Shown: one piece after another, positions 3,375 to 56,120 of the stretch
Numbering within the stretch: position 1 is the stretch's first letter
Layout: each line of letters starts with the position of its first letter
Translations under genes and position numbers: made by a program
Assembly: GCA_902500205.1 (NCBI GenBank)
Contig: GCA_902500205.1_4868.1
Source of the DNA: Escherichia coli
Lineage (GTDB): Bacteria; Pseudomonadota; Gammaproteobacteria; Enterobacterales; Enterobacteriaceae
Length of the DNA stretch: 64,000 bases
Direction: 5' to 3' (one strand)
The notes under the pieces: model-generated
What the model saw: the letters and a program-made list of their open reading frames with translations, nothing else
The model's database searches: none
Told to the model about the DNA's origin: nothing

Positions 3375-5153
3375 GTGTTTAAAGATGCGATTAGGAAGAT
3401 TAAAGAGGCAGGCGAAATAGTGCCTTTTAATCGTGCAATTGCAGAAGGAGTTGGGTACACACAAGCTAAAGACGGGATACATGATCGTGTGGCAACCATT
3501 CTACGTCGTGAGTTGACGTATGATGAAATCGATAACCCGAAATTACCAGAAGGGTTAACGGTGTTAGGCTGCCGTCAGATGTCCCCGTTTGAAGCTTTTA
3601 TCTTTAAGTTATCGAAGTCGGATAACAATTCACGAAACAATCGTGGCCGGTCAATTATTAACATCTCATCCACTGACACGTATATGGTAATGGCCTCGTT
3701 CCGTGTTCCAGGCGACCCCCGTCCGGTGCAACGACCGATGAGCTTACCATTTATTCGTCGTGGCGGCTTAATGAACTACTACGGTACAACGTACCACGTA
3801 GCACCTGTAATCCACCAACCTGGTATTTGTCGTGAGCACGGTGGTATCTTTATTAACTTTGACTTCACCCGCAAGGTGTCTATCAAGTTCTGTAAGAAAC
3901 CAACGAAGATTCTGGTGAACGGTCGTCCGGAACAACTGTTCTTACCAGGCACGTCGAATCTGTTTGTCTCAACCGGACAGATTGGACACGACACCGATGA
4001 GAAGCCGTTGATGTATTGGCTCTTCGGGCGCTACGGCTTTAAACAAGCTGTGAAGCGTTATGCGGGCGTTGATGTGACGATTTGGCCAGCGATTAAAGTA
4101 CGTGATGTGGACTTAACGAAGTATGTGGTGATTCAGTCCGGTGAGCCACAACTCGCGAAGACCATCCAGTACGTACTGTTGGTTAAACGTGAAGATATGC
4201 CTAACACCGATGCAGGGCGTTGGGATCAGAATGAACATCTGTTGCTGGTAGCGACTGCTGCGTTCTTCAAAGCAGCGCACTACTACGCAGGTAAACAGAA
4301 CAGTAAGAACGGTCGTGCACCAACACTGCCGGGGCTGTTTACACAGATTAACGAAATGGCAATGGACGAAGATATTGCGAACCTCAACTCTGCAGCCTCC
4401 TGGCGCGAAGTGTTGGGTCGTAGTATTCGCGGACTGAAGCCCTCGGATATCGAACTGAGTCGCAGTATGGACAGCCACTTCCAGGAATGTGAACGCTATG
4501 TCAACAGCACCTTCCGTGGTGAGCTGATGGCAAACGATCCGTCCATCCCTGATGATTTGGATATGTTTGATTTCCTCTGGTATACCACGCAGCTGATGGT
4601 GCGTACTCGTCTTACCAAACAAGATGATATTCCGTCTATGTACGGAAAACGTCTCACGGTAACCGATTACTTACTGTTGGGCCAACGTGGCTTTACCACA
4701 ACGATCTCGAAAATACGTTGGAAGCTGGGGCAGTTGGAACATCGGACTCCAGAGACAGCGGCGAAGTCTATTCGAGACGCACTGAACAAACAGATCGTGC
4801 TCAATCTGGTGATGCGCACCATTACGAGCAACGGCGGTATCAGTTTCTTCAATGCCTCTACAGAATCAATGGTATTGGCAGTGTCTACGCACGCCATCGG
4901 TCAAACCGAAACCGATGCTAAGCGTTCGAAGAAAGGAGGCAAGACCGTTAACTTGAACGACCGTACTAAGCACGCATCCGCGTCGCATCTGGAATGTGGT
5001 AACGTCTACTATATTCCTAAGTCGGCACCGTTTAAGGCGAACATCCTCAACCCGTACATGAAGACCAACCCAAGTTTGGTAATGATGCGGAACCCTAAAC
5101 TGGACCCGTACATCAGACCGACCGAAGAAGACATTGCTAAAATCGGCCGCTAA
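3375..5153 (+). CDS. Hypothetical protein (592 aa), possibly virion-associated
   Basis: Long ORF, GTG start after 'gagggagg' SD; no recognisable catalytic motif. Confidence 0.8.
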   Translation: MFKDAIRKIKEAGEIVPFNRAIAEGVGYTQAKDGIHDRVATILRRELTYDEIDNPKLPEGLTVLGCRQMSPFEAFIFKLSKSDNNSRNNRGRSIINISSTDTYMVMASFRVPGDPRPVQRPMSLPFIRRGGLMNYYGTTYHVAPVIHQPGICREHGGIFINFDFTRKVSIKFCKKPTKILVNGRPEQLFLPGTSNLFVSTGQIGHDTDEKPLMYWLFGRYGFKQAVKRYAGVDVTIWPAIKVRDVDLTKYVVIQSGEPQLAKTIQYVLLVKREDMPNTDAGRWDQNEHLLLVATAAFFKAAHYYAGKQNSKNGRAPTLPGLFTQINEMAMDEDIANLNSAASWREVLGRSIRGLKPSDIELSRSMDSHFQECERYVNSTFRGELMANDPSIPDDLDMFDFLWYTTQLMVRTRLTKQDDIPSMYGKRLTVTDYLLLGQRGFTTTISKIRWKLGQLEHRTPETAAKSIRDALNKQIVLNLVMRTITSNGGISFFNASTESMVLAVSTHAIGQTETDAKRSKKGGKTVNLNDRTKHASASHLECGNVYYIPKSAPFKANILNPYMKTNPSLVMMRNPKLDPYIRPTEEDIAKIGR

Positions 5154-5184: not shown

Positions 5185-6855
5185 ATGAGCATTACTGTTG
5201 AACAAATCAAAAACGTCATCGTTAAACACCTCGATCAGGATGCGGTGCTGTCGCAGCTGAATAACGTGATGCGTAGTCGTAGCATTCCGCCAGATCAGGC
5301 GTTAAAGATTGCGACGTATGTTGCGGCATGGGCAGCATCCAAAGGGGGTAGTGAAGCACAGGTTATCGCATATGCGGTCGACGCGTATAAAGCAGCTGCC
5401 TATCAGCAGGTGCATAACGCGGGCGACGCGTATAACGACGATCGTCACACCAAACTGGTTAATGCTTGGGAACAAGTCGGTAAGATTCTTGCCGAAATTC
5501 GTTCTCAGCAGTCTGGCGGTTTGGGTGGCAGTGGTGGTTTAGGTGGTGGTAGCAACGCAGGTGGGTTACTGGGCGGTAACAGTTCTGGCGGTGTTCGTGT
5601 TACTGATGGCCTGACCATGTCTTCTGCGCCATCTGGTGGTGTTAAGATTGGTAACACAGATGCGGCACTAACCGTGATTGCTGGCGGTGAAGGTCTTAAC
5701 CTGGTCAATGATCCTATTCTGAACCCACAACCGGCGCAAGTAGCCCCAGCACAACAGCCCCGGCCTGAACCAGCACCGGTGCCTGTACAACCAATGCCGG
5801 TGTCTAATGCTACAGTTAATAACCCAGTGCTTTCCCCACTCGGCGCAACAGAAGAAACCGAGAAGGACACTATCAATGGCCCAATTAACAACATTCTGCA
5901 GGAGATTGATTTGATGGAAGACTACGCACTTCACGAGCTGAAAACCCCCGAGCTTAAAATGTCGATTCCAGCGAAGGAAGCTAACAGTCGCATTAAGCAA
6001 TCTGTTTACGCGGAAACGCGTGATTGGGCTACACCGTTGCAAGATATCTTTAACGGTAATGAAGAGGTTGTTTTCTACGACGGGGCTGACCTGATTGTGC
6101 GTGCACGGGATAGTTATCGCGCGTATCTGGTCGGTGTTAACACTGATATGTGCGAACGCATGAAGCAATTTGTTGCTAAGCACGACGCGTTGAAATCCGA
6201 TCTCGACAGCCTGGCGCTGGTAGAAGATGTTGAAACTATCATGGCTAAGGTGAAACGTACGATCGATGAACTGCGTAAGAACACGAAAGAACTGCACGAT
6301 TATGCGATTGCGAACAGCAGCGAAGCAGAAGTGGTTATCAGTGAGATTTCTCGCTTTGCTAATGCGTACCTGGCGAACATCACGTTCTTGGTACACAATG
6401 CGCTGTCGCTGGGCACTAAGCGCGGTAAAGATGTGCCGAAGTTCAAAGCCATCGATTTCGAACGCAAAATCAGCGATATTGATTTCTTCGTAAAAGATCT
6501 GTTCACTGCAACCGCTGGCGACAACGGCGTCAGTGAATATGAAGACTGGTTCCGTGACCTGTTCTTGATGGTGGCGAACTCTCTGCGCAAACTGACTATT
6601 AAGCTGAGCGATTCCGGCAAAGTAGTTAATCTGATTCAGAGCCAGTTCACTATTGTAATTCCAGGCATGTACCATTCCGTTGATAAGCATGATGTGGTTA
6701 CGGTAGCGTCTTTGGGCAATACCGCAGACCCTGTTGTATCTATCTACGAAGCTGTGCAGGAAAACGTGCCACATGCAATTGTATTGATGCAGCTGCCGCA
6801 GCACACCTATCTGCTTCTGAGCAATGGTGAGAAAACTGCACCAGTGTTGTACTAA
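5185..6855 (+). CDS. Hypothetical protein with Gly-rich and Pro-rich low-complexity linkers
   Basis: 'taaggag' SD before ATG 5185; internal 'SGGLGGSGGLGGGSNAGG' and 'PQPAQVAPAQQPRPEPAPVPVQPMP' segments. Confidence 0.8.
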   Translation: MSITVEQIKNVIVKHLDQDAVLSQLNNVMRSRSIPPDQALKIATYVAAWAASKGGSEAQVIAYAVDAYKAAAYQQVHNAGDAYNDDRHTKLVNAWEQVGKILAEIRSQQSGGLGGSGGLGGGSNAGGLLGGNSSGGVRVTDGLTMSSAPSGGVKIGNTDAALTVIAGGEGLNLVNDPILNPQPAQVAPAQQPRPEPAPVPVQPMPVSNATVNNPVLSPLGATEETEKDTINGPINNILQEIDLMEDYALHELKTPELKMSIPAKEANSRIKQSVYAETRDWATPLQDIFNGNEEVVFYDGADLIVRARDSYRAYLVGVNTDMCERMKQFVAKHDALKSDLDSLALVEDVETIMAKVKRTIDELRKNTKELHDYAIANSSEAEVVISEISRFANAYLANITFLVHNALSLGTKRGKDVPKFKAIDFERKISDIDFFVKDLFTATAGDNGVSEYEDWFRDLFLMVANSLRKLTIKLSDSGKVVNLIQSQFTIVIPGMYHSVDKHDVVTVASLGNTADPVVSIYEAVQENVPHAIVLMQLPQHTYLLLSNGEKTAPVLY

Positions 6856-6862
6856 GTAATAC

Positions 6863-6897
6863 GGAGACCTTCGGGTCTCCTATTATTATTTTTTATT
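6863..6897 (+). terminator. Intrinsic terminator (TTCG loop)
   Basis: 'ggagacc-ttcg-ggtctcc' followed by 'tattattattttttatt'. Confidence 0.8.
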
Positions 6898-6920
6898 CTA
6901 CCGTGAAATGGAGTATTAAA

Positions 6921-7187
6921 ATGTCTAGTGTTGAAGCAGTAATCTATTTTGAAAACGATGGGGTCGCAGGGTGTGGCTTCCCGAAGACAACAGGGGTTAA
7001 ATCTCTGTTGGCAAAGTATAAAGAAGAGCTTAAGAAAACGGCAGGGCAGAACCCTGGCGTGCCACTGCGTAGCGTTTTTCCTGAGATGGAGAAGGCCGCA
7101 AAAACTGATCCGGTGCTAGATATGTTCTGCGGGATGATCAAAGAGCGATTCCCTGACATTGATAAGTACCACATTACGCTGGCGTAA
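6921..7187 (+). CDS. Small hypothetical protein
   Basis: ATG 6921 after 'ggag'; ORF-track frame 6903-7187. Confidence 0.6.
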   Translation: MSSVEAVIYFENDGVAGCGFPKTTGVKSLLAKYKEELKKTAGQNPGVPLRSVFPEMEKAAKTDPVLDMFCGMIKERFPDIDKYHITLA

Positions 7188-7221
7188 TTATTATAGAGTA
7201 GCTCTATAATGAGGTTCGAGC

Positions 7222-7524
7222 ATGGTAAAGTTCATTGTTGTCAACATGGATTTTGAGCGTAGTGTGCGTTTTCGCTTTGAGTTACCTGAAAACAAAGCGA
7301 CTGAAGCTTTCTTAGCCGACTTCCACAAAGCCAAAACAGCGATCAGTCATGGACGTCGCTGGCAAATCTTCTATAACGCCCGTAAAGGCCTCCTGAAGGC
7401 GTTAAAAGCAGCAAAGGATACAAAGGTATTGGAAAAGCTAGAACCTTTCCAGAACGACCCTCTGGCGATTGGTATCATGCTCGACGAACTGGTTAATAAA
7501 CCCAAAGCTGCTACAGAAGATTAA
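7222..7524 (+). CDS. Small hypothetical protein (100 aa)
   Basis: ORF with ATG 7222; ends at a bidirectional terminator. Confidence 0.65.
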   Translation: MVKFIVVNMDFERSVRFRFELPENKATEAFLADFHKAKTAISHGRRWQIFYNARKGLLKALKAAKDTKVLEKLEPFQNDPLAIGIMLDELVNKPKAATED

Positions 7525-7582
7525 AAAAGAAAAGGTACCTCTCCCCGAAGGGAGAGGTAAACCTTATTTCTTTTTCTTTTTT
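7523..7582. terminator. Bidirectional intrinsic terminator between convergent genes
   Basis: Stem 'acctctccc/gggagaggt' with 'cgaa' loop, A-tract on the 5' side and 'ttatttctttttcttttttg' on the 3' side. Confidence 0.8.
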
Positions 7583-7584
7583 GT

Positions 7585-10329
7585 TTAGAGGACGTTGTCT
7601 GGGTTGTCGTCGGTAGTTCCTTCACCGCCTTCTGTGCCTTCCGTTCCCTCGGTAGTTGTTTCCGTGGTTTCGGTCGACTCAGTAGTTTCCTCTGTACTAT
7701 CACCACCGGTGCCGTTATCCGTATCGAGATCGAGGTCTAAATCATCGTCACCCCCACCGCCGAGATCCCCATCACCACCGCCGGTGTCACCGCTCGCATC
7801 AAAACCACCACCGAATCCGCCGGAAGCATCGTTAGGATCAAGGTCGGCATTCTTCGCTAACGTTTCCAGTCGCCCGGTGAAACGTTTCGCCAATTGAATC
7901 AGCGTTTTCGAAGCAGCCATCGCTTCATCAGTCATCATGGTGATGTTGTCCTGACGAGAATCATCGTCGTAAACCAGATCGAAGAAGTCGGTTTCAATAC
8001 CTTGTTTACGCAGCCAGTTGCGCGTATAGAAGGATTTGATCATCGTCTTCAGATCGTTCGGGTCCATCGAGATGCCTTCTTGCTGGAGTTGCGCAGCAAT
8101 GTCATCCGTTACAACCAGATCAGCCAGCTTCTCAAAGAACTCCGTACGTTTATCGAACAGCTCCATCTGCGAAGCTGCTGCAGAGGTGTCTGGCGGTGGT
8201 AAGGTTACTTTCATACCGTTGATAAACGCAGCCAGATACTCAGAGACCTTTTTCGTAATCTGGTCAGTAGTCATCCCATTGCCGTTAGCATTGATGTACT
8301 CTGCAATGATTTTAATCATCGCTGATTGCAACGACGGAGAGGCCAACATCCCATTAACTACGTAACGTGTCAGTGGCTTAGAGAGAATCTCTTGCTTCTT
8401 AACAACCTGCTGGGTGACCAGTAACGATTTAGAGAAGATCTGTGAAGCAAACTCGATGTTCTCGGGGGTCATTACCAGGTCAGGGTCAACACCTGCGATG
8501 TGACAAGTACGTCGTAACAGACCTTCGTCGAAATCCTTATCCGGGTATTTATAATCCGGCGTAGTGTCCGACACAGACACTTTGGTACTACCGTAGTAGT
8601 CGTTACCAATAACGTTAAACGCAATACCTGCGTTTGTCGTCATTGCCCAGGTGTCGTTCATGTCCCCCCACATCGGTTGACGACGGTTATAGGAGTTCAT
8701 GATGTCTGTTTTCAGCTGGTCAATTGTTTTCTGACCGTTCATGTCATCTGGTGCCAACTCAATGTCGTACTGCATGTGACGTGCAGAGTTCAACACCGCA
8801 GAGTTCATGGTAGCGAACAACAGCGCCATACGGACAGTAGAGATAACGAACGAGCGTTCGGTAATAGATACACCGATACCATCTTCATCAAAGTCCGTGG
8901 CAAAATAGCAAAGGTTTTCCGCAGGAATATAGATAACCTGCGTATGACGTTTTGCCAGATGGCGCGCCAGCATGATACGGCTGAACGTTTCGGTTACTGT
9001 CATGCTAATCTCAGCACCACCCAACGCCTCACCCAGAGCTTTGGTTAGCTGGTCTTCAGCAATTTCACCATAACGCGCTGTTAAGCGGTTAGCAATGTCT
9101 GGTGTGATTCGGGTTGTGTTGCCCATCCCCAGATTCGCACGGTTGATTGTTGAATCCACCATACCGTCGTTGTTCAGGTAGTTCATGAAGTTCGCATCAC
9201 CGTAAAGTGTGGAGCGCGAGTTAATGAAGTTACCCATTTCGTCAACGATGGCCAGATAACCTATGGGGTTACGAACATCGTCGCCGATAACGAGCGGGAG
9301 TGTGGACTCTGCTGGCAGTAATCGTTCCGTGTATTCGATTTTGTTGGCATCGGAGAAACTCATCTTCGGTACTTCGCCGTAAAGCTTTTGCTCAGGCGTT
9401 TTCTGGTACGCTTCGTTGAGGTCGCCGATGTTGATTAAACCGAGTTTTGCCTTCTCTTGTTCACTGTCTGTGAACTGGTCAGCGTTATACTCTGACGCAC
9501 CTGTCGGCGTAGAAGGTTGTTCATATGCGTACTGCTCTAACTGACCGAACAGGCCGGTGCGAGCATTCTCCTGTGCTACACGGCGATAAGCCTCTGGTAG
9601 CAGGGTAATACGCGGGTTGTCGGTGATAACGATATCCAGGGAAGCTAACATACCGTCTGCTTTAAACGGACTGTTAGGGGCTGCTGCAAAGTTAAGTTTA
9701 ATGGTTTGTGGCTTGGTGGGCTTGTCAGCGCCACGTGCACGACCCAGAATACTTTCTACACCAACCTTCGGTTTGTTTTCACCGCCAATCTTGCCCAGGA
9801 TACCCAACTGACGTTCAAAGAAGTCAGATTGGCTACGGCGCAACGATTCGGTTGCAACAGACGGCTTTAAGCCGAAGAGTTCATCGAATCCGGTATCTGA
9901 AATCAGCAACACCGGGCTCGCGCCTTTGGATTTCAGTGCATCGTAAATCCACTGATACAGTTTGTTGGGTAACTGGCGCGTGTGGTCATGGAATTCACGC
10001 ACAGGTTCCAACAACTGTTGACGCAGGTCGATCGGGATATCAGCCACGTTGTCGTAAATCAGCGTGGTGTTAATCAAATCTTTTGTGGACAGGAGTGAGG
10101 AGGTCGCGATGGTAACAATGACCTCTAACTCAGGGAGCGCATCAAAGATACGTTCGGCATTTTTAACGGTGCGAATGCGGCTACTCGCAATGCCTGTGAG
10201 TTCTGTACGGGTTGGTGTAACGCCGCCATCTTCACGCTTACCGCGTTGCTGCTGAGCCGACGGGCTCGTGGACTTACGCAGTATGGCAGCTACCGCGGGG
10301 TCGCCCGTTAATTTACTAATATCTTCCAT
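7585..10329 (-). CDS. Large protein (914 aa) with acidic low-complexity C-terminal tail; only long minus-strand gene in the window (portal-like candidate, speculative)
   Basis: Uninterrupted 2.7-kb ORF; C-terminus rich in D/G/T/E repeats ('DLDLDLDTDNGTGGDSTEETTESTETTETTTEGTEG'). Confidence 0.8.
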   Translation of the reverse strand: MEDISKLTGDPAVAAILRKSTSPSAQQQRGKREDGGVTPTRTELTGIASSRIRTVKNAERIFDALPELEVIVTIATSSLLSTKDLINTTLIYDNVADIPIDLRQQLLEPVREFHDHTRQLPNKLYQWIYDALKSKGASPVLLISDTGFDELFGLKPSVATESLRRSQSDFFERQLGILGKIGGENKPKVGVESILGRARGADKPTKPQTIKLNFAAAPNSPFKADGMLASLDIVITDNPRITLLPEAYRRVAQENARTGLFGQLEQYAYEQPSTPTGASEYNADQFTDSEQEKAKLGLINIGDLNEAYQKTPEQKLYGEVPKMSFSDANKIEYTERLLPAESTLPLVIGDDVRNPIGYLAIVDEMGNFINSRSTLYGDANFMNYLNNDGMVDSTINRANLGMGNTTRITPDIANRLTARYGEIAEDQLTKALGEALGGAEISMTVTETFSRIMLARHLAKRHTQVIYIPAENLCYFATDFDEDGIGVSITERSFVISTVRMALLFATMNSAVLNSARHMQYDIELAPDDMNGQKTIDQLKTDIMNSYNRRQPMWGDMNDTWAMTTNAGIAFNVIGNDYYGSTKVSVSDTTPDYKYPDKDFDEGLLRRTCHIAGVDPDLVMTPENIEFASQIFSKSLLVTQQVVKKQEILSKPLTRYVVNGMLASPSLQSAMIKIIAEYINANGNGMTTDQITKKVSEYLAAFINGMKVTLPPPDTSAAASQMELFDKRTEFFEKLADLVVTDDIAAQLQQEGISMDPNDLKTMIKSFYTRNWLRKQGIETDFFDLVYDDDSRQDNITMMTDEAMAASKTLIQLAKRFTGRLETLAKNADLDPNDASGGFGGGFDASGDTGGGDGDLGGGGDDDLDLDLDTDNGTGGDSTEETTESTETTETTTEGTEGTEGGEGTTDDNPDNVL

Positions 10330-10340
10330 TGGGGTCTCCG

Positions 10341-12524
10341 ATGCAGAGATTTAACATTTTTCGTGACCAGGCTATCCAGTTAGCGAAATCCCTGATTGTC
10401 AAATCAGAGAGCATCGCACAACAGATGAACCTGGCAATAACCAAAAACGGCGGTTTCGTTTCCGAGAACCGTGAGACGTGGCGGTATTACCTACACTTAG
10501 CAGGTAAACGACATGCAATCGACAAGCCGATATACATTACGTCACTCGACACGCAAGAGCAGATAGAGTTAACGACGCAGAACCTCTCCCGTCATAAAAA
10601 GACCTCAAACGTATATCGTTCTAACCCGGAGTATATCGACGACTTAATCGCCGAGTATCCGGACTACGCAGTATATATTCGAGGCACTTTCAATCCGATT
10701 GATATTGCATATGCGATACGTGTCGATGACTGCTCAATTTTGTATTACGATCCTGCTTTAGTTGAACCGCAGGAGACGTCGTTAATTACACATATTGAGA
10801 ACTTTATTCGTGCAGCACATGTGCGTTTCATGGCCGATGGCTGGAAAGTTCACAACGACTGTTTCGTACTGGCCTTTTACATGCAACAGTACCCGGTGTG
10901 GCCGGGGCTTATCATGTACATCCGCAAACGGTTACAGTTTACGACCGAAACGCACTCCTACTACGTGACCGAGTTCTTGGCTTCGCACCAAGAACTGCAC
11001 GAGTTCATGCCGTACCTGACCCTCAAGCAGAAATTCACACTGTATCGCAACATCCGTTACTGGGAACGTAACTCTGGTAAGGAAGAAATCTTTACCTGGA
11101 TGATTGACACCCTGCTGACGGGTTGGGGTATGCCTGCTGTTGGATATAAGGTCGCCCAGCAGATTCACGACCCGACGACGGGCAGTGATGATGACCTGAC
11201 ACCTCTCCCGATCGGCTACCAGTCATCGCTTAACTATACTGAACGTGACTCGGGTCGTGACCTGGACATTGTTAGCACAACTGACATCATCCAGAAAGAA
11301 ATCAATCTGGCGTACAATAACCCAGTGCACGAACCTGACTATCAGGAAGACCTCGATCGGCGTTTGAGCTTGACGCAGTATCCGAACCTGCCAACGAAGT
11401 TAGTTGAGGTAACGGCGATTGACCCAGAGGCCATCGAACGTTGGGAATTTATGCATGGCTTGTTCAACGAGTGGATGCATATCGTGGCACGCGGACAGTA
11501 CAACATTTACCACGAAATTCTTAACCCAACGAACGGGGATACGCTAAAGCTCACTTCAAAAGAGCTGCTGGCACTGTTCTTGTATGCGAGCTTCAAAGGT
11601 TATTCGGGTGTAGCACTGGATAAAATCCCGGTGTGGAACGTGTTTGGTGTGCTAATCAAACGCTGGGTTGGTTTTGATGAGATGGAGCAGTATCTGCCAA
11701 GCTCATGGCCCGGCCGTTTTAATGCGTTGATTAACTATTACACGGACACGCATCATGAAGTTATCGGCAATTTGATGTCTGCAGATGAGCTGTACGATGA
11801 AATCAGCGAAATCATGGTGCAGAAGCGTCGTCGTTACCGTTACTCGTATAATCGACACAAGCTAGCCGACCGTGCTGCCGGCACAATGCTGTTTACCTAT
11901 CATTACCGTGACTATAAGTGCGATCTTGACCTACCTTACCGCGATTACGACGAGTTCTTCAAAACGTTTGGTTTTGATTACAAGTTAGTCTCCGCGGAAA
12001 CCTGGCAGGATATCGCCACCGACGCTTTAAACGTGGCCACTAATCTGGAAACACGTGCGTCTGTCTCACAAGCTGAAATACAACGCGCGATGGTGCGGTT
12101 AATGACGAAACTCTCGTCGTATACTGTCCATTTTGCCGCACGTATGGGTTCTGACACCTACGATGTCACCGACCCAGTCATCCCGATTCTGGATGATATT
12201 CTCGCAGAGGCTGCCGATACAACAAATATCATTTACCCTCTGACAGACGTGCAGCGTGTGAGCCGTAGTTCATTCATGACGACGGATAAGCCCATCCCTG
12301 TCGCTCCCGTGATAAAGGAAATGGCAATCCCGCAACGTATTAAGTTGCGGATGAATGTCTACCCTGGTATCCGCGTGAAGGTCGAGCAGGATGTTGTGAT
12401 CGATATGGTACAGCCGCCTATTGATGTTATCCGTGTGCGGACGTCATTTGAGGAGTGGACGCTTGCCGAGCGCGTGGCCGACCGTGACATGGATGGCTTC
12501 CGGCTAGACCAATTACCAAAGTGA
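10341..12524 (+). CDS. Hypothetical protein (about 727 aa), divergent from the 914-aa gene
   Basis: ORF-track frame 10329-12524 (TTG); first ATG at 10341. Confidence 0.8.
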   Translation: MQRFNIFRDQAIQLAKSLIVKSESIAQQMNLAITKNGGFVSENRETWRYYLHLAGKRHAIDKPIYITSLDTQEQIELTTQNLSRHKKTSNVYRSNPEYIDDLIAEYPDYAVYIRGTFNPIDIAYAIRVDDCSILYYDPALVEPQETSLITHIENFIRAAHVRFMADGWKVHNDCFVLAFYMQQYPVWPGLIMYIRKRLQFTTETHSYYVTEFLASHQELHEFMPYLTLKQKFTLYRNIRYWERNSGKEEIFTWMIDTLLTGWGMPAVGYKVAQQIHDPTTGSDDDLTPLPIGYQSSLNYTERDSGRDLDIVSTTDIIQKEINLAYNNPVHEPDYQEDLDRRLSLTQYPNLPTKLVEVTAIDPEAIERWEFMHGLFNEWMHIVARGQYNIYHEILNPTNGDTLKLTSKELLALFLYASFKGYSGVALDKIPVWNVFGVLIKRWVGFDEMEQYLPSSWPGRFNALINYYTDTHHEVIGNLMSADELYDEISEIMVQKRRRYRYSYNRHKLADRAAGTMLFTYHYRDYKCDLDLPYRDYDEFFKTFGFDYKLVSAETWQDIATDALNVATNLETRASVSQAEIQRAMVRLMTKLSSYTVHFAARMGSDTYDVTDPVIPILDDILAEAADTTNIIYPLTDVQRVSRSSFMTTDKPIPVAPVIKEMAIPQRIKLRMNVYPGIRVKVEQDVVIDMVQPPIDVIRVRTSFEEWTLAERVADRDMDGFRLDQLPK

Positions 12525-12531
12525 GAGACTT

Positions 12532-13059
12532 ATGGGATACCGTATAGATTTATCAAAAACCCCGAAACAGATTCTGGTTGAGAGAATCAATTACGTTTTT
12601 AAGTTATCGTATAGTGAAAATAACTACGAGTTTAACCCACGTGGGGTGTGGCCGTTAACCCAAGCAGAGCGACGCGCTAAAGGTGTGGAGTCTAAAGTTG
12701 CGGCGCGCTTTGTAAATGGGGTACACGGCACTCAAGAGTTTTACCTGACTCGTGCGGACTTAAACAAGTTACTTAAAGACGTAACGGTTGAAGTTCCGAA
12801 GGGTGCGGCAGAATGGAGCCATGAATTAGTTCCGTATACTGTCGATGAGCTGGGTCTCCAGCTTGACACCTACGATATCATGGTTGAACCGATTACCCCG
12901 GAAATGGAATCGTATGAGGCGCGCTTAATCCCGCACCATCTATCTTTCAAAGGCACGATTGCGATTACTTTTGTTGACCCAACTCCCCGTAAGCTGGCGC
13001 AGCTGGTAACTAAACGGGCACTCGACGGGTTTCGCCCAGGAGAATTTTTAAATGGCTAA
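12532..13059 (+). CDS. Hypothetical protein (175 aa)
   Basis: ORF with ATG start; overlaps next gene by 8 nt. Confidence 0.7.
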   Translation: MGYRIDLSKTPKQILVERINYVFKLSYSENNYEFNPRGVWPLTQAERRAKGVESKVAARFVNGVHGTQEFYLTRADLNKLLKDVTVEVPKGAAEWSHELVPYTVDELGLQLDTYDIMVEPITPEMESYEARLIPHHLSFKGTIAITFVDPTPRKLAQLVTKRALDGFRPGEFLNG

Positions 13060-13939
13060 CACCAAAGTTTACGATGGTAAACTGTCAACAGTGACTCTTA
13101 ACGCGATGCGACTTACGACCGCGTTATTGACAGGTGCTGACGTGCAGTACCCACAGAAATCCACGATGAACGAGTTTTATAAACTCATGACCTCGAAAGT
13201 TCCCGATGGCGCTACACGTCCGCATTTAGGATACATGTGCGTGGGTAACCGTGGTCACATCGTTGATCAGTCTGATGTTGTGGCAGACGTTGTTCCTGTC
13301 GCGAAATCCCCGATTACGTCAGGGATGTTCTCGCGCGTTCCATTGGTACTGCGTACGTTGGATAATGACTTGTCTGATGAGCAACGTAAACAGTACGCTT
13401 TCCGTACTCGTGAAACTATCGGCGCGCGGGATTACTGGGCGTATTATCTGAAACGTATCGACATGCGCGCAGTGAAGACCACTGACCTGGATATCACTCG
13501 CGAAAACGGTGTTGAAACCGTCAAAGATTTCGTCTATACCGATGCGGAACTGAACCCGGTACCGAAAGAACTCCCAGACTACGATTACGACGATGACGGC
13601 ACTGTAGAGATCCCCGACGGTCGTTATGTTGAATCGGGCGCAGACCTGGTGATTCCATGGACTGAGTTTGATGTTCAGGAATACATGAACGTGACGGCGA
13701 TTCTACGTGGTACGCCACGCAGTTCGATTATCTCTGAAATTGCGCTGTGCTCTGGCGTTGATACCCCTGAAACGGGTGAGTCGGCTACCGGTTCACAGTT
13801 CAGCTACGACGAAGCTATCGGTGTGCAGGCGTTGTACTACATCTCCCTGTTCACTAACCTGGCACAGACCAACGATCGTCTGTCACTGACCATCCGTATC
13901 GGCCAGCCGGCACCGTGGTTCTTAGGGACAGCTAACTGA
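13052..13939 (+). CDS. Hypothetical protein (295 aa)
   Basis: ORF; stop overlaps next start (TGATG). Confidence 0.75.
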   Translation: MANTKVYDGKLSTVTLNAMRLTTALLTGADVQYPQKSTMNEFYKLMTSKVPDGATRPHLGYMCVGNRGHIVDQSDVVADVVPVAKSPITSGMFSRVPLVLRTLDNDLSDEQRKQYAFRTRETIGARDYWAYYLKRIDMRAVKTTDLDITRENGVETVKDFVYTDAELNPVPKELPDYDYDDDGTVEIPDGRYVESGADLVIPWTEFDVQEYMNVTAILRGTPRSSIISEIALCSGVDTPETGESATGSQFSYDEAIGVQALYYISLFTNLAQTNDRLSLTIRIGQPAPWFLGTAN

Positions 13940-14589
13940 TGCTGATTCCTGAGCCGAGGTTACCCGACAGTATGGTGAGGATTGCGGCTGTTGACCCCGG
14001 TACTGCCCATCTTGGGATGGCGGTTATCGACTGGGAATTTGGCCAACCTCAAGGTGAAGTTGTCTGGGCGGGAACGGCTCATGTTGCGGACCCTACGCAC
14101 AATGGCTCTTTTGGTGAGTGCGTAGGGAAACGCGATGCGCGTTTGGTAGAATTAGAAGAACGCTTTCGTGAGTTTTTAAAACTGGCAAGGCCGACTTTTG
14201 TCGCTACCGAAACTCCATTCATGCGAAGAGCTAAGCTCTCAGCGTACGAATCTGGGGTGGAATTGCAACTGATGTTGCGGCGAACGCTTTGGGACGTGTT
14301 TCCCGAAAAATATCTCCATGGGTTTAATCCTATTATTGTGAAGTCGTACGTTGGTGTGGAAGCAAAGGGTACAGATAAATCGCATATGCAGCAAGCGGTT
14401 ACCAAGCTCTACGCTAACCATACCCGGTGCGACTTATCGGTATTGGATGAACACAGTATCGATGCCGTGGCGGTGGGTAATATCTTCGTCAGGGTCAACT
14501 TATTAAACCTAAATAGTCTCCTTCCGCCCAAGGTTAAAGTTCCTAAAGCTAAGGCCGGTAAGCGGAAAGGAAGACGCCGGAGGAAATAG
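13939..14589 (+). CDS. RuvC-like Holliday-junction resolvase (putative)
   Basis: N-terminal 'IAAVDPGTAHLGMAVID', central 'ATETPF', C-terminal 'DEHSIDAVAVGN' resemble the RuvC catalytic signature; basic C-terminal tail. Confidence 0.6.
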   Translation: MLIPEPRLPDSMVRIAAVDPGTAHLGMAVIDWEFGQPQGEVVWAGTAHVADPTHNGSFGECVGKRDARLVELEERFREFLKLARPTFVATETPFMRRAKLSAYESGVELQLMLRRTLWDVFPEKYLHGFNPIIVKSYVGVEAKGTDKSHMQQAVTKLYANHTRCDLSVLDEHSIDAVAVGNIFVRVNLLNLNSLLPPKVKVPKAKAGKRKGRRRRK

Positions 14590-23765: not shown

Positions 23766-23805
23766 CCCCTCTTACCTTCGGGTAAGAGGGTATTGTCTTT
23801 TTTAC
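23766..23805 (+). terminator. Intrinsic terminator (TTCG loop)
   Basis: 'ccctcttacc-ttcg-ggtaagaggg' followed by 'tattgtctttttt'. Confidence 0.85.
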
Positions 23806-23851
23806 AGATCGTAACAGTCTTATGCTTTTTGCTTCCAGTCCACTAAATTTC

Positions 23852-23873
23852 AGATATATATTACTTAGGTGAG
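23852..23873 (+). promoter_or_regulatory. Conserved 22-bp promoter-like motif, copy 4
   Basis: 'agatatatattacttaggtgag'; 49 nt upstream of ATG 23923; identical to copy 7. Confidence 0.55.
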
Positions 23874-29714: not shown

Positions 29715-29750
29715 CCTCCTTGCCCACGGGTGAGGAGGTCCCTTTTTATT
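29715..29750 (+). terminator. Intrinsic terminator
   Basis: 'cctccttgcc-cacg-ggtgaggagg' (two G-U pairs) followed by 'tccctttttattt'. Confidence 0.7.
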
Positions 29751-29804
29751 TACATCAGTCCACTAACTTATGTGAAACAACCCACGTAATGAGGAATTAA
29801 GAGA

Positions 29805-30414: not shown

Positions 30415-30427
30415 CGCACGACTTTTC

Positions 30428-30449
30428 AGATAGATGTTATTTTACTGAA
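30428..30449 (+). promoter_or_regulatory. Conserved 22-bp promoter-like motif, copy 5
   Basis: 'agatagatgttattttactgaa'; 27 nt upstream of ATG 30477. Confidence 0.5.
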
Positions 30450-39165: not shown

Positions 39166-39166
39166 C

Positions 39167-39188
39167 AGATAGATGTTATCTCAGTGAA
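39167..39188 (+). promoter_or_regulatory. Conserved 22-bp promoter-like motif, copy 6
   Basis: 'agatagatgttatctcagtgaa'; 56 nt upstream of ATG 39245; leader hairpin 'ctctga...tcagag'. Confidence 0.55.
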
Positions 39189-39244
39189 CCTCTGAAATTT
39201 ACGTTTCAATCAGAGCTTATGTCATGTATTAAGGAGCAATTAAA

Positions 39245-43688: not shown

Positions 43689-43711
43689 CTAGTCCGATTA
43701 CAATTATTTTC

Positions 43712-43733
43712 AGATATATATTACTTAGGTGAG
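43712..43733 (+). promoter_or_regulatory. Conserved 22-bp promoter-like motif, copy 7
   Basis: 'agatatatattacttaggtgag', identical to copy 4; 51 nt upstream of ATG 43785. Confidence 0.55.
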
Positions 43734-43784: not shown

Positions 43785-44231
43785 ATGTACATTCTGAATA
43801 ACGAACTTACTAAATACGCTAGCAAAAACCCGATTATGATTTCTTTCCTAATCGTGATGGCGGCCAACAAACAAGACCCTAGCGAATTCACTACTGAGGA
43901 CTTCGAAGAGATTATCGCCAACGCCAAAGAAGCCACGTTCCAGACCACAGAACCTACTCGCGACGAGTTCCCTCTAGGTGAAGCCGGCGATGTAATGTTT
44001 AACGACATGATTGCTTCGTACTACATCAATAGACGTGGTATGGAAATCGAATACGACGAACTTCCTACTAGCAGCTTTGCTGAAATGATTCGTGATTATC
44101 GTCGTCAAGTTGTCTCTGACGACATCGTAAAGAAATACATGGCACAAATCAGCCCATTCAGTCTTGAATTCGAAAACCGTGCAATCGCCTTAGCGACGCA
44201 TCGCCTGCGTTTAGAAAAAGAAGTACACTAA
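43785..44231 (+). CDS. Hypothetical protein (148 aa)
   Basis: 'cttaaggag' SD; downstream of promoter motif copy 7. Confidence 0.8.
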   Translation: MYILNNELTKYASKNPIMISFLIVMAANKQDPSEFTTEDFEEIIANAKEATFQTTEPTRDEFPLGEAGDVMFNDMIASYYINRRGMEIEYDELPTSSFAEMIRDYRRQVVSDDIVKKYMAQISPFSLEFENRAIALATHRLRLEKEVH

Positions 44232-44292
44232 CAATAACCCGGCGGGCAAAGTCCCGCCAATCAACCTGCAATCTACAAAAAAGGAATATCCC

Positions 44293-44511
44293 ATGCGCAA
44301 CCTCTTCTCCAAATCTGAAATCAAACCTGTTGTTGAAACCACCGCCAAACGTAAGCCTGACATGATTGACCTGCTGCTGAAAATGTCTGCAGCAGAAGCC
44401 AAAGCTTTCATGAAAACAATGAAAGACGGCGATAAAATGATTGACAACGTTGAAGTAACCTACGGTGTTAAAGACCGCCCAAAGAATAACGGCCTTGTGT
44501 GGGTCTGTTAA
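44293..44511 (+). CDS. Small hypothetical protein (72 aa)
   Basis: 'aaaaggaat' SD; host-like codon usage. Confidence 0.7.
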   Translation: MRNLFSKSEIKPVVETTAKRKPDMIDLLLKMSAAEAKAFMKTMKDGDKMIDNVEVTYGVKDRPKNNGLVWVC

Positions 44512-44532
44512 TCGACGATTGAGGATAAAGTC

Positions 44533-44964
44533 GTGAACGTAATCAAAAAGCTGAACGGCGATACTTTCCATGCTCTGATGCCGAAGGGTGCACGTATTCG
44601 GATAAACAACAAAAACAAACCCTATAAGACGGACTACACGTTCGACACCACTGACCACGCATTCGGTATCTGCGACGAAGGGACGAACGATGTCAAATGG
44701 ATTATCGTGGTATACGAAACGTCTAGTGGGTATAAGTTCTGGGATGCCTATGAACTGCAGAAGGGCTATTGGTGGTATGTCAGTTGGGAAGCTTTCAATG
44801 ACAAGGTATCTTATTCGTGGAACGACTTCCCGCACTTTTGCTGGGATAGTTGGTTTCATGATTGCGGGGATAAGATTTCTGATCTTGTCCAGGAACTCTA
44901 CAAACACTACAAAGAACACAATGGAAACTTCGTCTATCCTGAATGGGAGCAGTCGAAGTCGTGA
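44533..44964 (+). CDS. Hypothetical protein (143 aa), Trp-rich
   Basis: 'gaggataaagtcGTG'. Confidence 0.75.
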   Translation: MNVIKKLNGDTFHALMPKGARIRINNKNKPYKTDYTFDTTDHAFGICDEGTNDVKWIIVVYETSSGYKFWDAYELQKGYWWYVSWEAFNDKVSYSWNDFPHFCWDSWFHDCGDKISDLVQELYKHYKEHNGNFVYPEWEQSKS

Positions 44965-45117: not shown

Positions 45118-45915
45118 ATGTCTTTTACTTCAAAACAGAATCTGCTAAAACTCATCAACGAAGAGAATAAGATAAGCCCACCGCTTACCTTTGACGATGT
45201 TGATATCGGACTGCCGGAGGTTGTGTCAGTAGACGGTCGTGATTCGGAGGTAGTCCTTACCTCGAAGATGCGCGGTGATGAAGGTACGCAAGTGATTGTG
45301 GACTACCATCGTCGTCCATTAGAGGACTACCTTAAAGGCGATGTTGCCTTTGGAGACGAGGACGTGCAAACCACGCACGACTTACTCGCGGCGATTAACG
45401 AGCGTTTTAATCTGTCTATCTTACCTGAGGATATCGAAGATAACCCCATTGATGGACAGACGCACACAGTCGTTGCTGTTGAAACTTCCCACGAGTGGCG
45501 AAGTCAAGCGGTCATCGAGCTGAAACCTGCTACACCTCTGGCAGAAGTAATAACCAATACAGAGTTGAGCGGTCTTCTGTACCCGGATCACCAGGACATC
45601 CAGTTGGGTCAGGCGTATATCTATTCGCGCGACATCGATTGTAGCCACATCTCTCGTTTCCTGAGCCTCTTAGCGGTCGGTATCGAAGTAGATGACACGG
45701 CGTTAGCAATCGAACTCAACAAATGTGTTCCTGAGATTTGGGTGGCTGAAGATACCCCATCCCCGTATAACTTGCGTGGTGCTACTGTCGTATTCGACGG
45801 CGTACCTGCAGACTTACCGGGAGCAAATACGGCGTTCGCGAAAGTCGTGTCAGTGCAACTGACCGATAAATGTACGAACTTCCAGGGCACCCTCAACTTA
45901 CACTTTAACAACTAG
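45118..45915 (+). CDS. Fibre-like paralog 1 (virion appendage family; function inferred)
   Basis: Shares the family N-terminal signature (about 80 aa, '...RNT...YYDR.NL...') and C-terminal '...L.LHFNN'. Confidence 0.8.
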   Translation: MSFTSKQNLLKLINEENKISPPLTFDDVDIGLPEVVSVDGRDSEVVLTSKMRGDEGTQVIVDYHRRPLEDYLKGDVAFGDEDVQTTHDLLAAINERFNLSILPEDIEDNPIDGQTHTVVAVETSHEWRSQAVIELKPATPLAEVITNTELSGLLYPDHQDIQLGQAYIYSRDIDCSHISRFLSLLAVGIEVDDTALAIELNKCVPEIWVAEDTPSPYNLRGATVVFDGVPADLPGANTAFAKVVSVQLTDKCTNFQGTLNLHFNN

Positions 45916-45925
45916 GAGGGTATAG

Positions 45926-46768
45926 GTGTCTATTTACGATAAGCCCTCGAAAGAGATGTTGTTAGATGCTATTAACCGACAGAACGGATTAACGGCCAAT
46001 CCACTCACATGGGAGCAGGTTGCAACTGGCTTCCCTGAGTCTGTCCAAACGCCTGGCGCTGACCGGAATACGCGTGTGCTCTTATACGGGTTGAACGGCA
46101 AGGGCTACAAAGGCAACGTTACGCTCGAATACGACCGTATCGAAATGGAAATTCTGTTCAGGAACGTAATACCGGTAGTCGTTGCCGACCCGGTAAATAA
46201 ACTCTCTGAGTTGTTGCCGTTTCTGAATGCGAAATACGGCTTGTCTTTAGTTGCCGACGATATCGTTGACCAGTCAGTAAAAGATTTGGGAGAAAGCTGG
46301 TTAATCGATGTGACTATTAAGCCCGGTTGCTTGGCCTGGCAAGGTGGTTTCCGTTTACGCTTTGCGAAGTTCTTCCCGAACTTGGCGGATGTGGTGACGG
46401 ATGTTGACCTCAGCGCAATTATCGCGCCGTTCGTGGTTGCTAGTAAACCACAGGCCGAGTATGTGGCGTATGGTTACGATTGGACTGAACTGCAAAAACA
46501 GTTCACCACCGATTGGGTTTACAACCGTGCAATCACTGCAGCGGATGTTGAGTTGTTGAATGAAGTGGTGCCATTAAAGTTTGCATATGTGACGGGGGCG
46601 AATGCGCAACCTGAACAAATTGCACTCCAAGGTGCACGATTTATGGGGATAACTTCAGTCACACCGAACGATAGTTACAACCCCGATTATCAGCGTGTGG
46701 CGATTATCAAGCTAGCTGCGGACAGCAACTACGCCGGTAATCTCATCCTTCATTATCTCCCGATATAA
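45926..46768 (+). CDS. Fibre-like paralog 2
   Basis: 'aggagg' SD before GTG; 'DRNTRVLLYGLNGKGYKGNVTLEYDRIEM'. Confidence 0.8.
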   Translation: MSIYDKPSKEMLLDAINRQNGLTANPLTWEQVATGFPESVQTPGADRNTRVLLYGLNGKGYKGNVTLEYDRIEMEILFRNVIPVVVADPVNKLSELLPFLNAKYGLSLVADDIVDQSVKDLGESWLIDVTIKPGCLAWQGGFRLRFAKFFPNLADVVTDVDLSAIIAPFVVASKPQAEYVAYGYDWTELQKQFTTDWVYNRAITAADVELLNEVVPLKFAYVTGANAQPEQIALQGARFMGITSVTPNDSYNPDYQRVAIIKLAADSNYAGNLILHYLPI

Positions 46769-46778
46769 GGATTTTGAC

Positions 46779-47624: not shown

Positions 47625-47645
47625 TCCTGAGTAAAGGAAGTAAGA

Positions 47646-48557: not shown

Positions 48558-48570
48558 TTAGGCCTCGCTG

Positions 48571-48610
48571 GGAGGAGGAAATCCTCCTCCTGGCTACTCC
48601 TTTCTTTTTT
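48571..48610 (+). terminator. Hairpin with distal T-tract (weak internal terminator)
   Basis: 'ggaggagg-aaat-cctcctcc' then 'tggctactcctttcttttttgg'. Confidence 0.45.
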
Positions 48611-48626
48611 GGCCGAGGAGGCTATT

Positions 48627-49466: not shown

Positions 49467-49476
49467 GAATTAGCGA

Positions 49477-50364: not shown

Positions 50365-50367
50365 TTG

Positions 50368-53665: not shown

Positions 53666-53674
53666 GGGGCAGTC

Positions 53675-54598: not shown

Positions 54599-54611
54599 CG
54601 GAGTAAAAGCC

Positions 54612-56108: not shown

Positions 56109-56120
56109 GAGGTAACGACA

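Follow-up and report, generated by a model that had tools for sequence, protein, structure and literature searches.

The divergent portal and gp82 genes of an SPN3US-type jumbo phage: an inherited head-to-head pair, 11 nt apart, with promoters probably embedded in the partner genes

Divergent gene pairs and the phiKZ precedent

In classical divergent gene pairs the two promoters share an intergenic stretch that measures at least some 100 nt. Late promoters of the phiKZ type reportedly consist of the tetranucleotide TATG with its G as +1 (Ceyssens 2014; Yakunina 2015). In phiKZ the TATG was found necessary for late promoter function, while the sequence upstream of it was dispensable. It is read by gp123, a beta-like subunit of the non-virion RNA polymerase (nvRNAP) of phiKZ (PMC12809450), and the literature on late promoters of this type of polymerase includes a 2026 structure with p119L. 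Because such a promoter is a TATG at the start site, with neither a -35 nor a -10 element, its placement inside coding sequence would be almost cost-free.

The counterpart of the locus described here is the phiKZ pair 128/129, for which transcript ends were mapped by ONT-cappable-seq (Putzeys et al. 2024). The phiKZ portal gene's transcription start site (TSS), P070, was placed at 130258 (+) at a "late promoter" (...TTTTATGA), 70 nt inside PHIKZ128, whose coding sequence ends at 130328, with the portal ATG at 130364. When we picked a TATG from the phiKZ sequence alone, the one 107 nt upstream of the portal gene proved to be the mapped P070 site. PHIKZ129 is the only gene of the transcription unit TU100, which extends from this TSS to the termination site T060 (133099); T059 and T060 are mapped 3' ends on both strands (Putzeys et al. 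2024). At the divergent phiKZ pair gp130/gp131 the two TSSs cross by 9 nt (Putzeys et al. 2024). No TSS is listed for gp128-126 in the phiKZ ONT-cappable-seq data, so that the side corresponding to gp82 has no experimental precedent, and the literature searched yielded no start-site or RNA-Seq data for SPN3US or other Seoulvirus. We are aware of the fact that the layout is already annotated and that the mechanism has already been described for a relative, phiKZ.

The head-to-head pair and its 11-nt spacer

The whole stretch of 64,000 nucleotides analyzed here is referred to as the window. It showed 97.0-98.8% DNA identity to deposited SPN3US-type genomes; judged by its sequence, it is an SPN3US-type, phiKZ-like (Chimalliviridae) jumbo phage, another isolate of the SPN3US species. 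Salmonella phage SPN3US (JN641803, SPN3US_0081/0082) and other Seoulvirus carry the pair at the same relative coordinates, with the same 11-nt spacer and terminator, and essentially no difference from them was seen in the window. Deposited Seoulvirus records name the products "virion structural protein 8/9" and leave the layout undiscussed; two deposited records label gp81 "portal protein".

The portal gene, SPN3US gp81 and homologue of phiKZ gp129, occupies 7585-10329 on the minus strand (914 aa), its ATG being the complement of 10327-10329, exactly as placed by the first-pass annotation. Besides the DNA identity, its assignment was based on phrog_3004 and on a match to PHIKZ129 (PDB 9xpe_M, E 3e-47, an entry with 12 chains), and over aa 1-832 the protein was 99-100% identical to SPN3US-type gp81. 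In SPN3US virions gp81 was detected by mass spectrometry, its N-terminal propeptide is cleaved, and peptides from the cleaved region were also detected (PMC5694885). For SPN3US gp81 and phiKZ gp129 the literature describes a dodecameric ring at the unique capsid vertex and removal of the propeptide by the prohead protease. By homology, 7585-10329 (-) is thus identified as the essential portal gene of an SPN3US-type phage. Its description as the only long minus-strand gene agrees with the SPN3US annotation, in which gp81 is the sole minus-strand gene from gp74 to gp158, a span covering the whole window. The other long minus-strand open reading frames in the window (5668-6804, 44158-44919 and 55679-56236) matched no PHROG family and were treated as shadow ORFs for this reason. 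The gene had also been presented as a solitary antisense oddity, to be dismissed should no antisense transcription be seen across 7585-10329. Since it encodes an essential, virion-detected portal whose orientation is conserved (80 of 80 loci, see below), neither the oddity nor such transcriptional silence could be upheld, the latter being excluded in practice.

On the plus strand, gp82 occupies 10341-12524 (727 aa, virion structural protein), with SPN3US_0082 at the same position. It was assigned to phrog_3222 and matched PHIKZ128 (PDB 9xqs_C) with an E-value of 3.4e-84 over query residues 4-640; in the alignment with its relatives, identity to PHIKZ128 was 27% and 69 columns were invariant. 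The cryo-EM atlas of phiKZ assigns gp128 to the wedge heterotrimer of the baseplate as a subunit, a placement shown for phiKZ only; on the alignment, gp82 is identified as a homologue of this baseplate-wedge protein. The ATG at 10341, the in-frame TTG at 10329 and the gap of 11 nt (10330-10340) were all found as first reported. The suggestion that the TTG might serve as an alternative gp82 start was ruled out by the N-terminus MQRFNIF, which is kept in the relatives and aligns from residue 1 across six genera, together with the variable spacer lengths in these relatives. By these alignments the true start is the ATG at 10341.

The spacer TGGGGTCTCCG between both start codons (10330-10340) is fully occupied by two likely Shine-Dalgarno (SD) sequences and is too short for a promoter plus leader. 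The gp82 SD, GGGGU at 10331-10335 (+), lies 5 nt before its ATG and was recognized by anti-SD complementarity with one G-U wobble, while the portal SD, GGAG at 10336-10339 (-), lies 6 nt before the ATG at 10329. As the latter lies beyond the gp82 SD, seen from its own ATG, the two are crossed. If both crossed SDs are in use, each mRNA must start within the partner gene, and an overlap of at least 9 nt (10331-10339) between the 5' ends of the two mRNAs is unavoidable. Of the 17 loci in the SPN3US/Erwinia-phage clade, 14 share an identical GGGGTCTCCG; the three of Derbicus type carry another spacer, 15 nt long, in which GGAG again stands on both strands. RNA structure at the junction was no different from shuffled sequences on either strand.

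The pairing itself was found throughout the family. All 80 IMG/VR loci fetched, with gp82-like proteins of 99-23% identity, had a portal homologue directly upstream in the opposite orientation; the spacers measured about 11-60 nt, with a median of 32. Spacers of 11-15 nt were measured in five genera, 24 nt in PCH45 and 35 nt in phiKZ. By sequence comparison, the head-to-head pairing of portal and gp128-like genes is an ordinary, family-wide inherited arrangement. Tight gaps are the style of the SPN3US genome, where divergent spacers of 11, 14, 25, 29 and 57-76 nt are common, and gp81/gp82 is the tightest of its 17 divergent junctions. This, together with a spacing of 11-15 nt in 17/17 clade loci, indicates that the tightness is not due to chance.

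Downstream of the portal gene, between the convergent gp80 and portal genes, a bidirectional intrinsic terminator hairpin with a 10-bp stem and T-rich tails on both strands was found at 7536-7559. The terminator had been drawn more broadly, at 7523-7582; its bidirectional nature was borne out, while the hairpin proper is the shorter segment. Folded as RNA, 7520-7590 gave -29.1 kcal/mol (z = -5.5), strong in both directions. In type, this hairpin corresponds to T059/T060 of phiKZ, which close PHIKZ129 at its 3' end, and to the terminator motif CCYCCCC...GGGRRGG...TTAT of that phage. The window thus resembles phiKZ 128/129 in its homologous genes, their head-to-head orientation, a portal gene alone on its strand and a bidirectional hairpin shared with the convergent neighbour. 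It differs in the spacer (11 nt versus 35 nt) and in that a TATG-type portal promoter inside the partner coding sequence has been mapped in phiKZ, while its counterpart in the window is a candidate only.

Candidate promoters and competing explanations

Both coding regions were searched for promoter motifs, as the first-pass annotation had proposed. The search gave one clade-invariant antisense TATG in each gene and no early, middle or sigma-70 motif at the junction. Of the antisense TATGs in gp82, a single one proved invariant throughout the clade (11/11 representatives, 17/17 loci). It lies on the minus strand at 10596-10593, with G(+1) at 10593, where it forms CAT-A in gp82 codons 85-86; it precedes the portal ATG by 264 nt, and its context TTTTATGAC matches phiKZ P070. 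As His85 of gp82 is itself invariant (His-Lys), only the third codon base was free to vary at this site. On the plus strand, the TATG at 9524-9527 (G(+1) at 9527, 814 nt upstream of the ATG at 10341, within CATATG 9522-9527 in portal codons 268-270) was the only clade-invariant antisense TATG in the portal gene (17/17 loci). It survives a change from GCA-TAT-GAA to TCA-TAT-AAT, with the third base of the Ala/Ser codon invariant. An alternative gp82 TATG at 10282-10285 (+), 56 nt upstream of the ATG and inside the first portal codons, is confined to the window and SPN3US, the other genera lacking it, and is therefore a weaker candidate. Starts at the two invariant TATGs would give long leaders (264 and 814 nt).

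We regard a portal TSS at 10593 (-) as a tentative proposal, less likely than not; a gp82 TSS at either 9527 (+) or 10285 (+), the two taken together, is doubtful. With 974 sites in SPN3US, or roughly one in every 500 nt of each strand, the TATG motif is too short for specificity. The two gene alignments contained just 22 and 32 invariant 4-mer windows, and the joint chance of two invariant TATGs was about 1%, although this estimate is naive and post hoc and the statistics are weak. The site mapped in phiKZ (gp128 codon 24) has no counterpart at that position in the window. As its position is conserved neither there nor among the near relatives of phiKZ, with no TATG at this place in the window or PCH45, homology cannot transfer the site, and the predictive value of conservation could not be confirmed. 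A TATG of PCH45 at 266 nt, close to the clade site at 264-270 nt, was rejected as coincidence, because it lies in a different codon (FTYDN). The relatives had no conserved TATG within 700 nt upstream of gp82.

SPN3US intergenic regions contain phiKZ-like motifs, including wTTTAC-N15-TATG and TATGA, which, like TATG itself, are enriched upstream of SPN3US genes. A position weight matrix around intergenic TATGs, built for ranking those in coding sequence, held almost no information beyond the TTTAC block and an A at +2. Early-type CAGATAkATATTAyC and middle-type wTTTAC-N15-TATG elements were clear elsewhere in the window and absent at the junction. A sigma-70 scan of 6800-12600 gave 3 sites versus 6.6 expected, none near the junction; it is probably irrelevant, as phiKZ, and presumably this relative too, is independent of the host polymerase, and the host sigma-70 polymerase is presumably not involved at gp81/gp82. 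Synonymous-site conservation, followed along both genes in 11 clade representatives, did not reveal any constrained block close to the junction, the highest z being 1.7 for portal codons 1-12, nor was there an invariant run of at least 6 nt.

The first-pass annotation had reasoned that each promoter must lie inside the other gene unless the pair depends on long read-through transcripts. This reasoning is sound, and for the portal side the embedded promoter is mapped in phiKZ, while for gp82 phiKZ offers no TSS. It is rather unlikely that gp82 and the later genes lack a promoter of their own and are served by plus-strand read-through crossing the portal gene antisense. Promoter-like motifs at 2106-2318 could provide the upstream start, no recognisable early or middle motif lies near gp82, its relatives lack a conserved TATG within 700 nt upstream, terminators are commonly passed in these phages, and phiKZ gp128-126 has neither a listed TSS nor a unit, yet a termination site (T058) follows gp126. 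However, such a transcript would have to pass the hairpins at 6863-6880 and 7536-7559, of which the second is strong, and phiKZ T059/T060 are mapped terminations in both directions. The upstream unit encodes an nvRNAP subunit, an early product in phiKZ, so that a shared transcript would mistime the baseplate protein gp82, and the antisense passage of 2.8 kb would lead to head-on collision with portal transcription. Transcription of gp82 from a middle-type promoter is distinctly improbable. Here AATTTAC at 10310-10316 (+), the upstream half of the SPN3US "middle-type" pattern, would direct a start at about 10335 and a leader of 5-6 nt without SD. The element resembles the phiKZ middle-promoter element AAAATTACC, many SPN3US genes are preceded by wwTTTAC with a TATG 15 nt further on, and gp73/gp74, the other very tight junction of SPN3US, has a similar TTTAC at the corresponding position. 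Yet it lacks its TATG partner, as the N15 spacing gives GGGT (10332-10335) and the pattern search found no match at the junction. Moreover, AATTTAC is absent from Kwan- and Derbicus-type relatives of the same tight layout, and SDs on both strands were retained even in the re-invented Derbicus spacer.

A regulatory role of the overlap itself, in which pairing of the 5' leaders or polymerase interference restrains or couples low-copy virion proteins, appears improbable. It would fit the overlap of at least 9 nt forced by use of both SDs (it would reach 1067 nt with start sites at the two clade-invariant TATGs), the universal pairing among the loci fetched, the low copy number of both proteins (12 copies of the portal and about 6 of the wedge protein per virion) and a putative 294-nt portal leader that folds better than shuffles (z = -2.9). 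Against it, the tests made gave no sign of regulation, the spacer varies in length within the family, between 11 and about 60 nt, the mapped phiKZ start position is unconserved, the presumed overlap shows no synonymous constraint, the junction has no special structure, and conserved synteny alone accounts for the pairing. The fuller version, with real promoters at 10593 (-) and 9527 (+) and a perfectly complementary 5' overlap of about 1.07 kb as a conserved device limiting or coupling the two virion proteins, is very improbable; if true, a sense-antisense overlap would act via RNA pairing, RNase III cleavage or polymerase collision in nucleus-forming jumbo phages. Finally, the tight spacing could be an annotation artefact with one true start codon further downstream, as starts can be mis-set: the annotated gap in Derbicus is 69 nt, versus 15 nt by homology. 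This is hardly credible, since MEDISKLT of the portal, like MQRFNIF, aligns from residue 1 in six genera, upstream of the aligned region the portal ORF offers just one start codon, an SD lies 5-6 nt from each ATG, and the cleaved N-terminal portal peptides were detected in SPN3US (PMC5694885).

The most probable explanation, which we hold with good confidence, is that gp81/gp82 is an inherited head-to-head pair with promoters embedded in the partner genes and read by the phage nvRNAP. By analogy, the phiKZ-like arrangement of start sites would also hold for the window. The window encodes a homologue of gp123 (3375-5153 (+); PDB 7ogp_E PHIKZ123, E 3e-20; phrog_2943 "polymerase"), further RNA polymerase subunit genes are annotated in SPN3US, and candidate TATGs lie on the right strands in both partner genes. 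Usage of such promoters has been shown in phiKZ; those of SPN3US are candidates read from the sequence. Middle and late genes would be transcribed by the phage's own nvRNAP, which would make the 11-nt layout workable. The portal gene would form a single-gene unit from a promoter within gp82 to the hairpin at 7536-7559, gp82 would head the plus-strand genes downstream, and each mRNA would start inside the other gene with overlapping 5' ends. Like classical divergent pairs, the two genes point outward from a short region and their transcripts may overlap at the 5' ends; unlike them, gp81/gp82 has no intergenic room, and the promoters must be in coding sequence.

Meaning for SPN3US-type phages

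The arrangement is of little importance beyond housekeeping. For annotation, it draws attention to starts that are mis-set at the junction in some relatives (Derbicus), and the two invariant TATGs offer start-site mapping a concrete target at low cost. In both gp82 and the portal gene, the initial few hundred bases probably hold the promoter and leader of the partner, so that edits there may affect the neighbour; for annotators and engineers of SPN3US-type phages this means that recoding, deletion or insertion near the junction may hit the neighbouring gene. For the biology of these phages, gp81/gp82 illustrates an extreme of packing: with a promoter of four bases at the start site no intergenic DNA would be needed, and essential genes can stand 11 bases apart.

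The gp81/gp82 gene pair and its start region

The open reading frames and their head-to-head starts, as described in the first-pass annotation, were confirmed from the sequence. On the minus strand gp81 extends from the ATG at 10329 to the stop codon at 7585-7587 (914 aa), and on the plus strand the gp82 reading frame opens at the ATG at 10341; a TTG at 10329 lies in the same frame. The minus-strand gene had been called solitary, and indeed gp81 is the sole minus-strand gene from gp74 to gp158 in the annotation of phage SPN3US; the remaining long minus-strand ORFs of the window matched no phage protein family. The segment 7000-13000 showed 97.0-98.8% identity to about 30 Salmonella, Escherichia and Proteus jumbo phages of the species Seoulvirus SPN3US, where SPN3US_0081 and SPN3US_0082 are this gene pair, annotated with an identical 11-nt gap. 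Judged by its matches, gp81 is the portal protein: it carries this name in two database records and matched the portal structure of PHIKZ129 (9xpe, 12 chains) with an E-value of 3e-47. In SPN3US virions gp81 was found by mass spectrometry as portal, with a long N-terminal propeptide cleaved (PMC5694885). For gp82 the match was to the structure of PHIKZ128 (9xqs, E 3.4e-84), a protein assigned to the baseplate wedge heterotrimer in the 2026 phiKZ cryo-EM atlas (PMC13250141). The phiKZ homologues of both genes are without transposon insertions, which suggests that portal and wedge genes are essential in phiKZ. The layout is ordinary: the pair is annotated in a known phage species, and its orientation is common to the whole family.

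The 11 bases separating the ATG at 10329 (-) from the ATG at 10341 (+) read TGGGGTCTCCG. The TTG at 10329, formerly considered an alternative gp82 start, was rejected: in six genera the protein begins with MQR(F/Y)NIF at ATG 10341 while the spacer length varies. The portal N-terminus (MEDISKLT or MDDISKL) aligned from residue 1 among relatives. Shine-Dalgarno (SD) candidates are GGGGT at 10331-10335 (+), 5 nt before the gp82 ATG, and GGAG on the complement of 10336-10339 (-), 6 nt before the portal ATG. The two putative ribosome-binding sites are therefore crossed, each adjoining the start codon of the other gene. With both in use, transcription would have to begin no later than 10331 on the plus strand and at 10339 or a higher coordinate on the minus strand, so the transcripts would overlap by at least 9 nt, each beginning inside the partner gene. 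This mutual overlap would be forced, with functional SD sequences as the sole assumption. With an 11-nt spacer and crossed SD sequences, the earlier reasoning that promoters lie within the partner gene or that read-through is required was right. RNA structure at the junction showed nothing unusual.

Other genes of the window were recorded as well. Among the baseplate-type genes downstream of gp82, 13939-14589 (+) matched PHROG 159 "RuvC-like Holliday junction resolvase" (E 2e-38). A tandem paralogue array of seven ORFs (265-303 aa, mutual identity 22-34%) occupies 45118-51195 (+), and a second family of four members (starting at 52667, 53675, 56121 and 57074; 24-43% identical) occupies 52667-58009 (+); some of these paralogues are SPN3US "virion structural proteins".

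Conservation of the head-to-head layout

In SPN3US 17 credible divergent junctions were counted, with spacers of 11, 14, 25, 29, 57, 63, 66, 67, 70, 72, 76, 98, 124, 163, 180, 206 and 280 nt. Tight junctions belong to the style of this genome, and gp81/gp82 is the tightest. Just upstream of the left end of the window (JN641803, 69553-69568), the gp73 helicase gene (-) and gp74 (+) are 14 nt apart, and the major capsid gene follows 12 nt after gp74; the promoter of the most abundant late protein must consequently sit in coding sequence.

The corresponding spacer measures 11 nt in Asesino, 12 nt in Kwan, 15 nt in Huxley and ChrisDB, 24 nt in PCH45 and 35 nt in phiKZ. In Erwinia phage Derbicus (NC_048173, 3886-4002) the portal gene gp78 and its neighbour gp79 are annotated with starts that leave a 69-nt gap, and homology to the conserved N-termini places the true starts 15 nt apart (CAT-TGGAGACAACTCCGG-ATG). 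When gp82 homologues were aligned and the alignment was used to scan IMG/VR, 80 loci of 99-23% identity were returned. A portal homologue was located directly upstream on the opposite strand in all 80, with spacers heuristically estimated at about 11-60 nt (median 32). Within the SPN3US/Erwinia-phage clade GGGGTCTCCG was unchanged in 14 of 17 loci, and the 3 Derbicus-type loci carry another 15-nt spacer, CCGGAGTTGTCTCCA, again with GGAG on both strands. By contrast, just 28-29% of the aligned coding positions were invariant, invariant runs within the first 130 codons were all shorter than 6 nt in both genes, and no stretch of synonymous constraint adjoined the junction. The layout is therefore old, has been maintained in the family and is not peculiar to the window.

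Promoters, terminators and the phiKZ precedent

Phages of the phiKZ type are independent of host RNA polymerase; early genes are transcribed by a virion polymerase from AT-rich promoters, middle and late genes by a non-virion polymerase. The phiKZ late promoter of the latter consists only of 5'-TATG-3' with G as +1; all four bases are needed, the upstream sequence is not, and downstream sequence contributes in an undefined way (PMC7598289, PMC4666361). The beta-like subunit gp123 recognises TATG in the non-template strand (PMC12809450), and a gp123 homologue is encoded at 3375-5153 (+; PDB 7ogp_E, E 3e-20), annotated merely as hypothetical protein (gp77) in SPN3US. Such a promoter can be embedded in coding sequence at nearly no cost, so that no intergenic space is needed.

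Using k-mer enrichment 12-90 nt upstream of 264 SPN3US genes, three patterns were obtained: an AT-rich early-type motif, CAGATA(G/T)ATATTA(T/C)C; a middle-type motif with fixed spacing, (A/T)(A/T)TTTAC-N15-TATG; and TATGA, TATGAC or GTATGA. The early-type motif had 11 matches in the window versus 3.5 expected, among them intergenic ones at 2106-2120, 2304-2318, 23851-23865, 30427-30441, 39166-39180 and 43711-43725 (all +), and is also found ahead of RNA polymerase subunit genes in other parts of SPN3US. By appearance these motifs would be the early promoters that the phage's virion polymerase uses. Exact middle-type matches precede genes at 2258-2282, 23800-23824, 29748-29772 and 39197-39221 (+), and resemble the phiKZ middle-promoter element AAAATTACC followed by a TATG start; SPN3US also has variants with TGTG replacing TATG. 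Neither an early-type nor an exact middle-type motif was found at the gp81/gp82 junction in the window search. AATTTAC at 10310-10316 is an unlikely middle-type element, since GGGT occupies the TATG position and the element is lost in Kwan- and Derbicus-type relatives. A further TATG, located 56 nt ahead of the gp82 start codon at 10282-10285, is confined to Seoulvirus.

For phiKZ, ONT-cappable-seq mapped promoter P070 (class "late promoter", start site 130258 (+), ...CAAATTTTATGA), from which the 2841-nt unit TU100 runs with PHIKZ129 as its single gene and stops at T060 (133099), which forms a pair with T059 (133067, minus) in a bidirectional hairpin between convergent genes (bioRxiv 10.1101/2023.10.13.562163). 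With PHIKZ128 at 128154-130328 (-) and the portal ATG at 130364, the phiKZ portal transcript therefore starts 70 nt inside gp128, with a 106-nt leader. We had picked this TATG, 107 nt upstream, independently from the phiKZ sequence alone. A TATG inside the neighbour's coding sequence combined with a bidirectional terminator is thus a mechanism already documented for the phiKZ homologues. In the adjoining divergent pair gp130/gp131 (AF399011), P072 (134420, +) and P073 (134428, -) cross by 9 nt. The same start-site tables contain no start site or unit for gp128-gp126 (bioRxiv 10.1101/2023.10.13.562163); a promoter on the gp82 side is therefore without precedent.

The bidirectional terminator proposed at the 3' end of the minus-strand gene was recovered as a 10-pair hairpin at 7536-7559 with T-rich tails on each strand, inside the 60 nt that separate the stop codon of the portal gene from that of a convergent plus-strand gene (7524); the RNA fold of 7520-7590 reached -29.1 kcal/mol (z = -5.5 versus shuffles). 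This hairpin bears on whether gp82 is expressed by read-through from upstream. Such read-through would agree with the lack of a recognisable promoter near gp82 and of a mapped promoter for phiKZ gp128. We nevertheless consider it unlikely, as two hairpins lie in its path (6863-6880 and 7536-7559), the phiKZ equivalent of the latter being a mapped stop in both directions. Moreover, the upstream unit carries the non-virion polymerase subunit behind an early-type motif, and such subunits are early in phiKZ, whereas gp82 is a baseplate protein. The hairpin at 6863-6880, 3' of gp78, reads GGAGACC-TTCG-GGTCTCC; its stem 7-mer GGTCTCC recurs in the gp81/gp82 spacer (10333-10339), probably by coincidence, and occurs only 7 times in the window including the complement.

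Candidate start sites within the partner genes

For internal promoters, 11 representatives of the SPN3US/Erwinia clade (17 loci) were aligned by codon, and exactly one antisense TATG per gene was invariant. The candidate for the portal lies at 10596-10593 (-), 264 nt upstream of its ATG, in the context TTTTATGAC, as in phiKZ P070. It is formed by CAT-A of gp82 His85-Lys86; only the third base of the His85 codon is free because His85 is invariant in the protein family, and about 11-13% of the two-fold codons with a conserved amino acid stay unchanged by chance. Compared with shuffled sequences, folding of the putative 294-nt portal leader is somewhat stronger (z = -2.9), which should not be over-read.

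The candidate for gp82 lies at 9524-9527 (+), 814 nt upstream of its ATG, in the palindrome CATATG of portal codons 268-270. It is kept despite the replacement of Ala-Tyr-Glu (GCA TAT GAA) by Ser-Tyr-Asn (TCA TAT AAT) and depends on an invariant third base of the Ala/Ser codon, as in just 2 of the 78 invariant four-fold portal codons. The palindrome (9522-9527) is retained in the clade via invariant synonymous positions, its CATAT core surviving the replacement in Derbicus-type phages; TATG is present on the plus strand in 17 of 17 loci and on the portal-sense strand in 9 of 11 representatives. It overlaps an A-x-E motif (AYE) of the type cut by the prohead protease.

Invariant 4-mer windows number only 22 and 32 in the two alignments, and the chance that each set includes CATA is about 0.1, jointly about 0.01; we are aware that these values are naive, post hoc and not decisive. 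Flanks of intergenic TATGs gave nearly no information usable for ranking coding ones. The mapped phiKZ TATG is not kept in position in the nearest IMG/VR relatives of phiKZ (at most 56% identical); evidently promoter positions move between relatives, and conservation is thus not validated as a promoter predictor.

Little is new here: the 11-nt spacer can be read as two crossed SD sequences, it is conserved, and two candidate start sites are open to testing. Should both candidate TATGs be active, complementarity between the two mRNAs would extend over 1067 nt.
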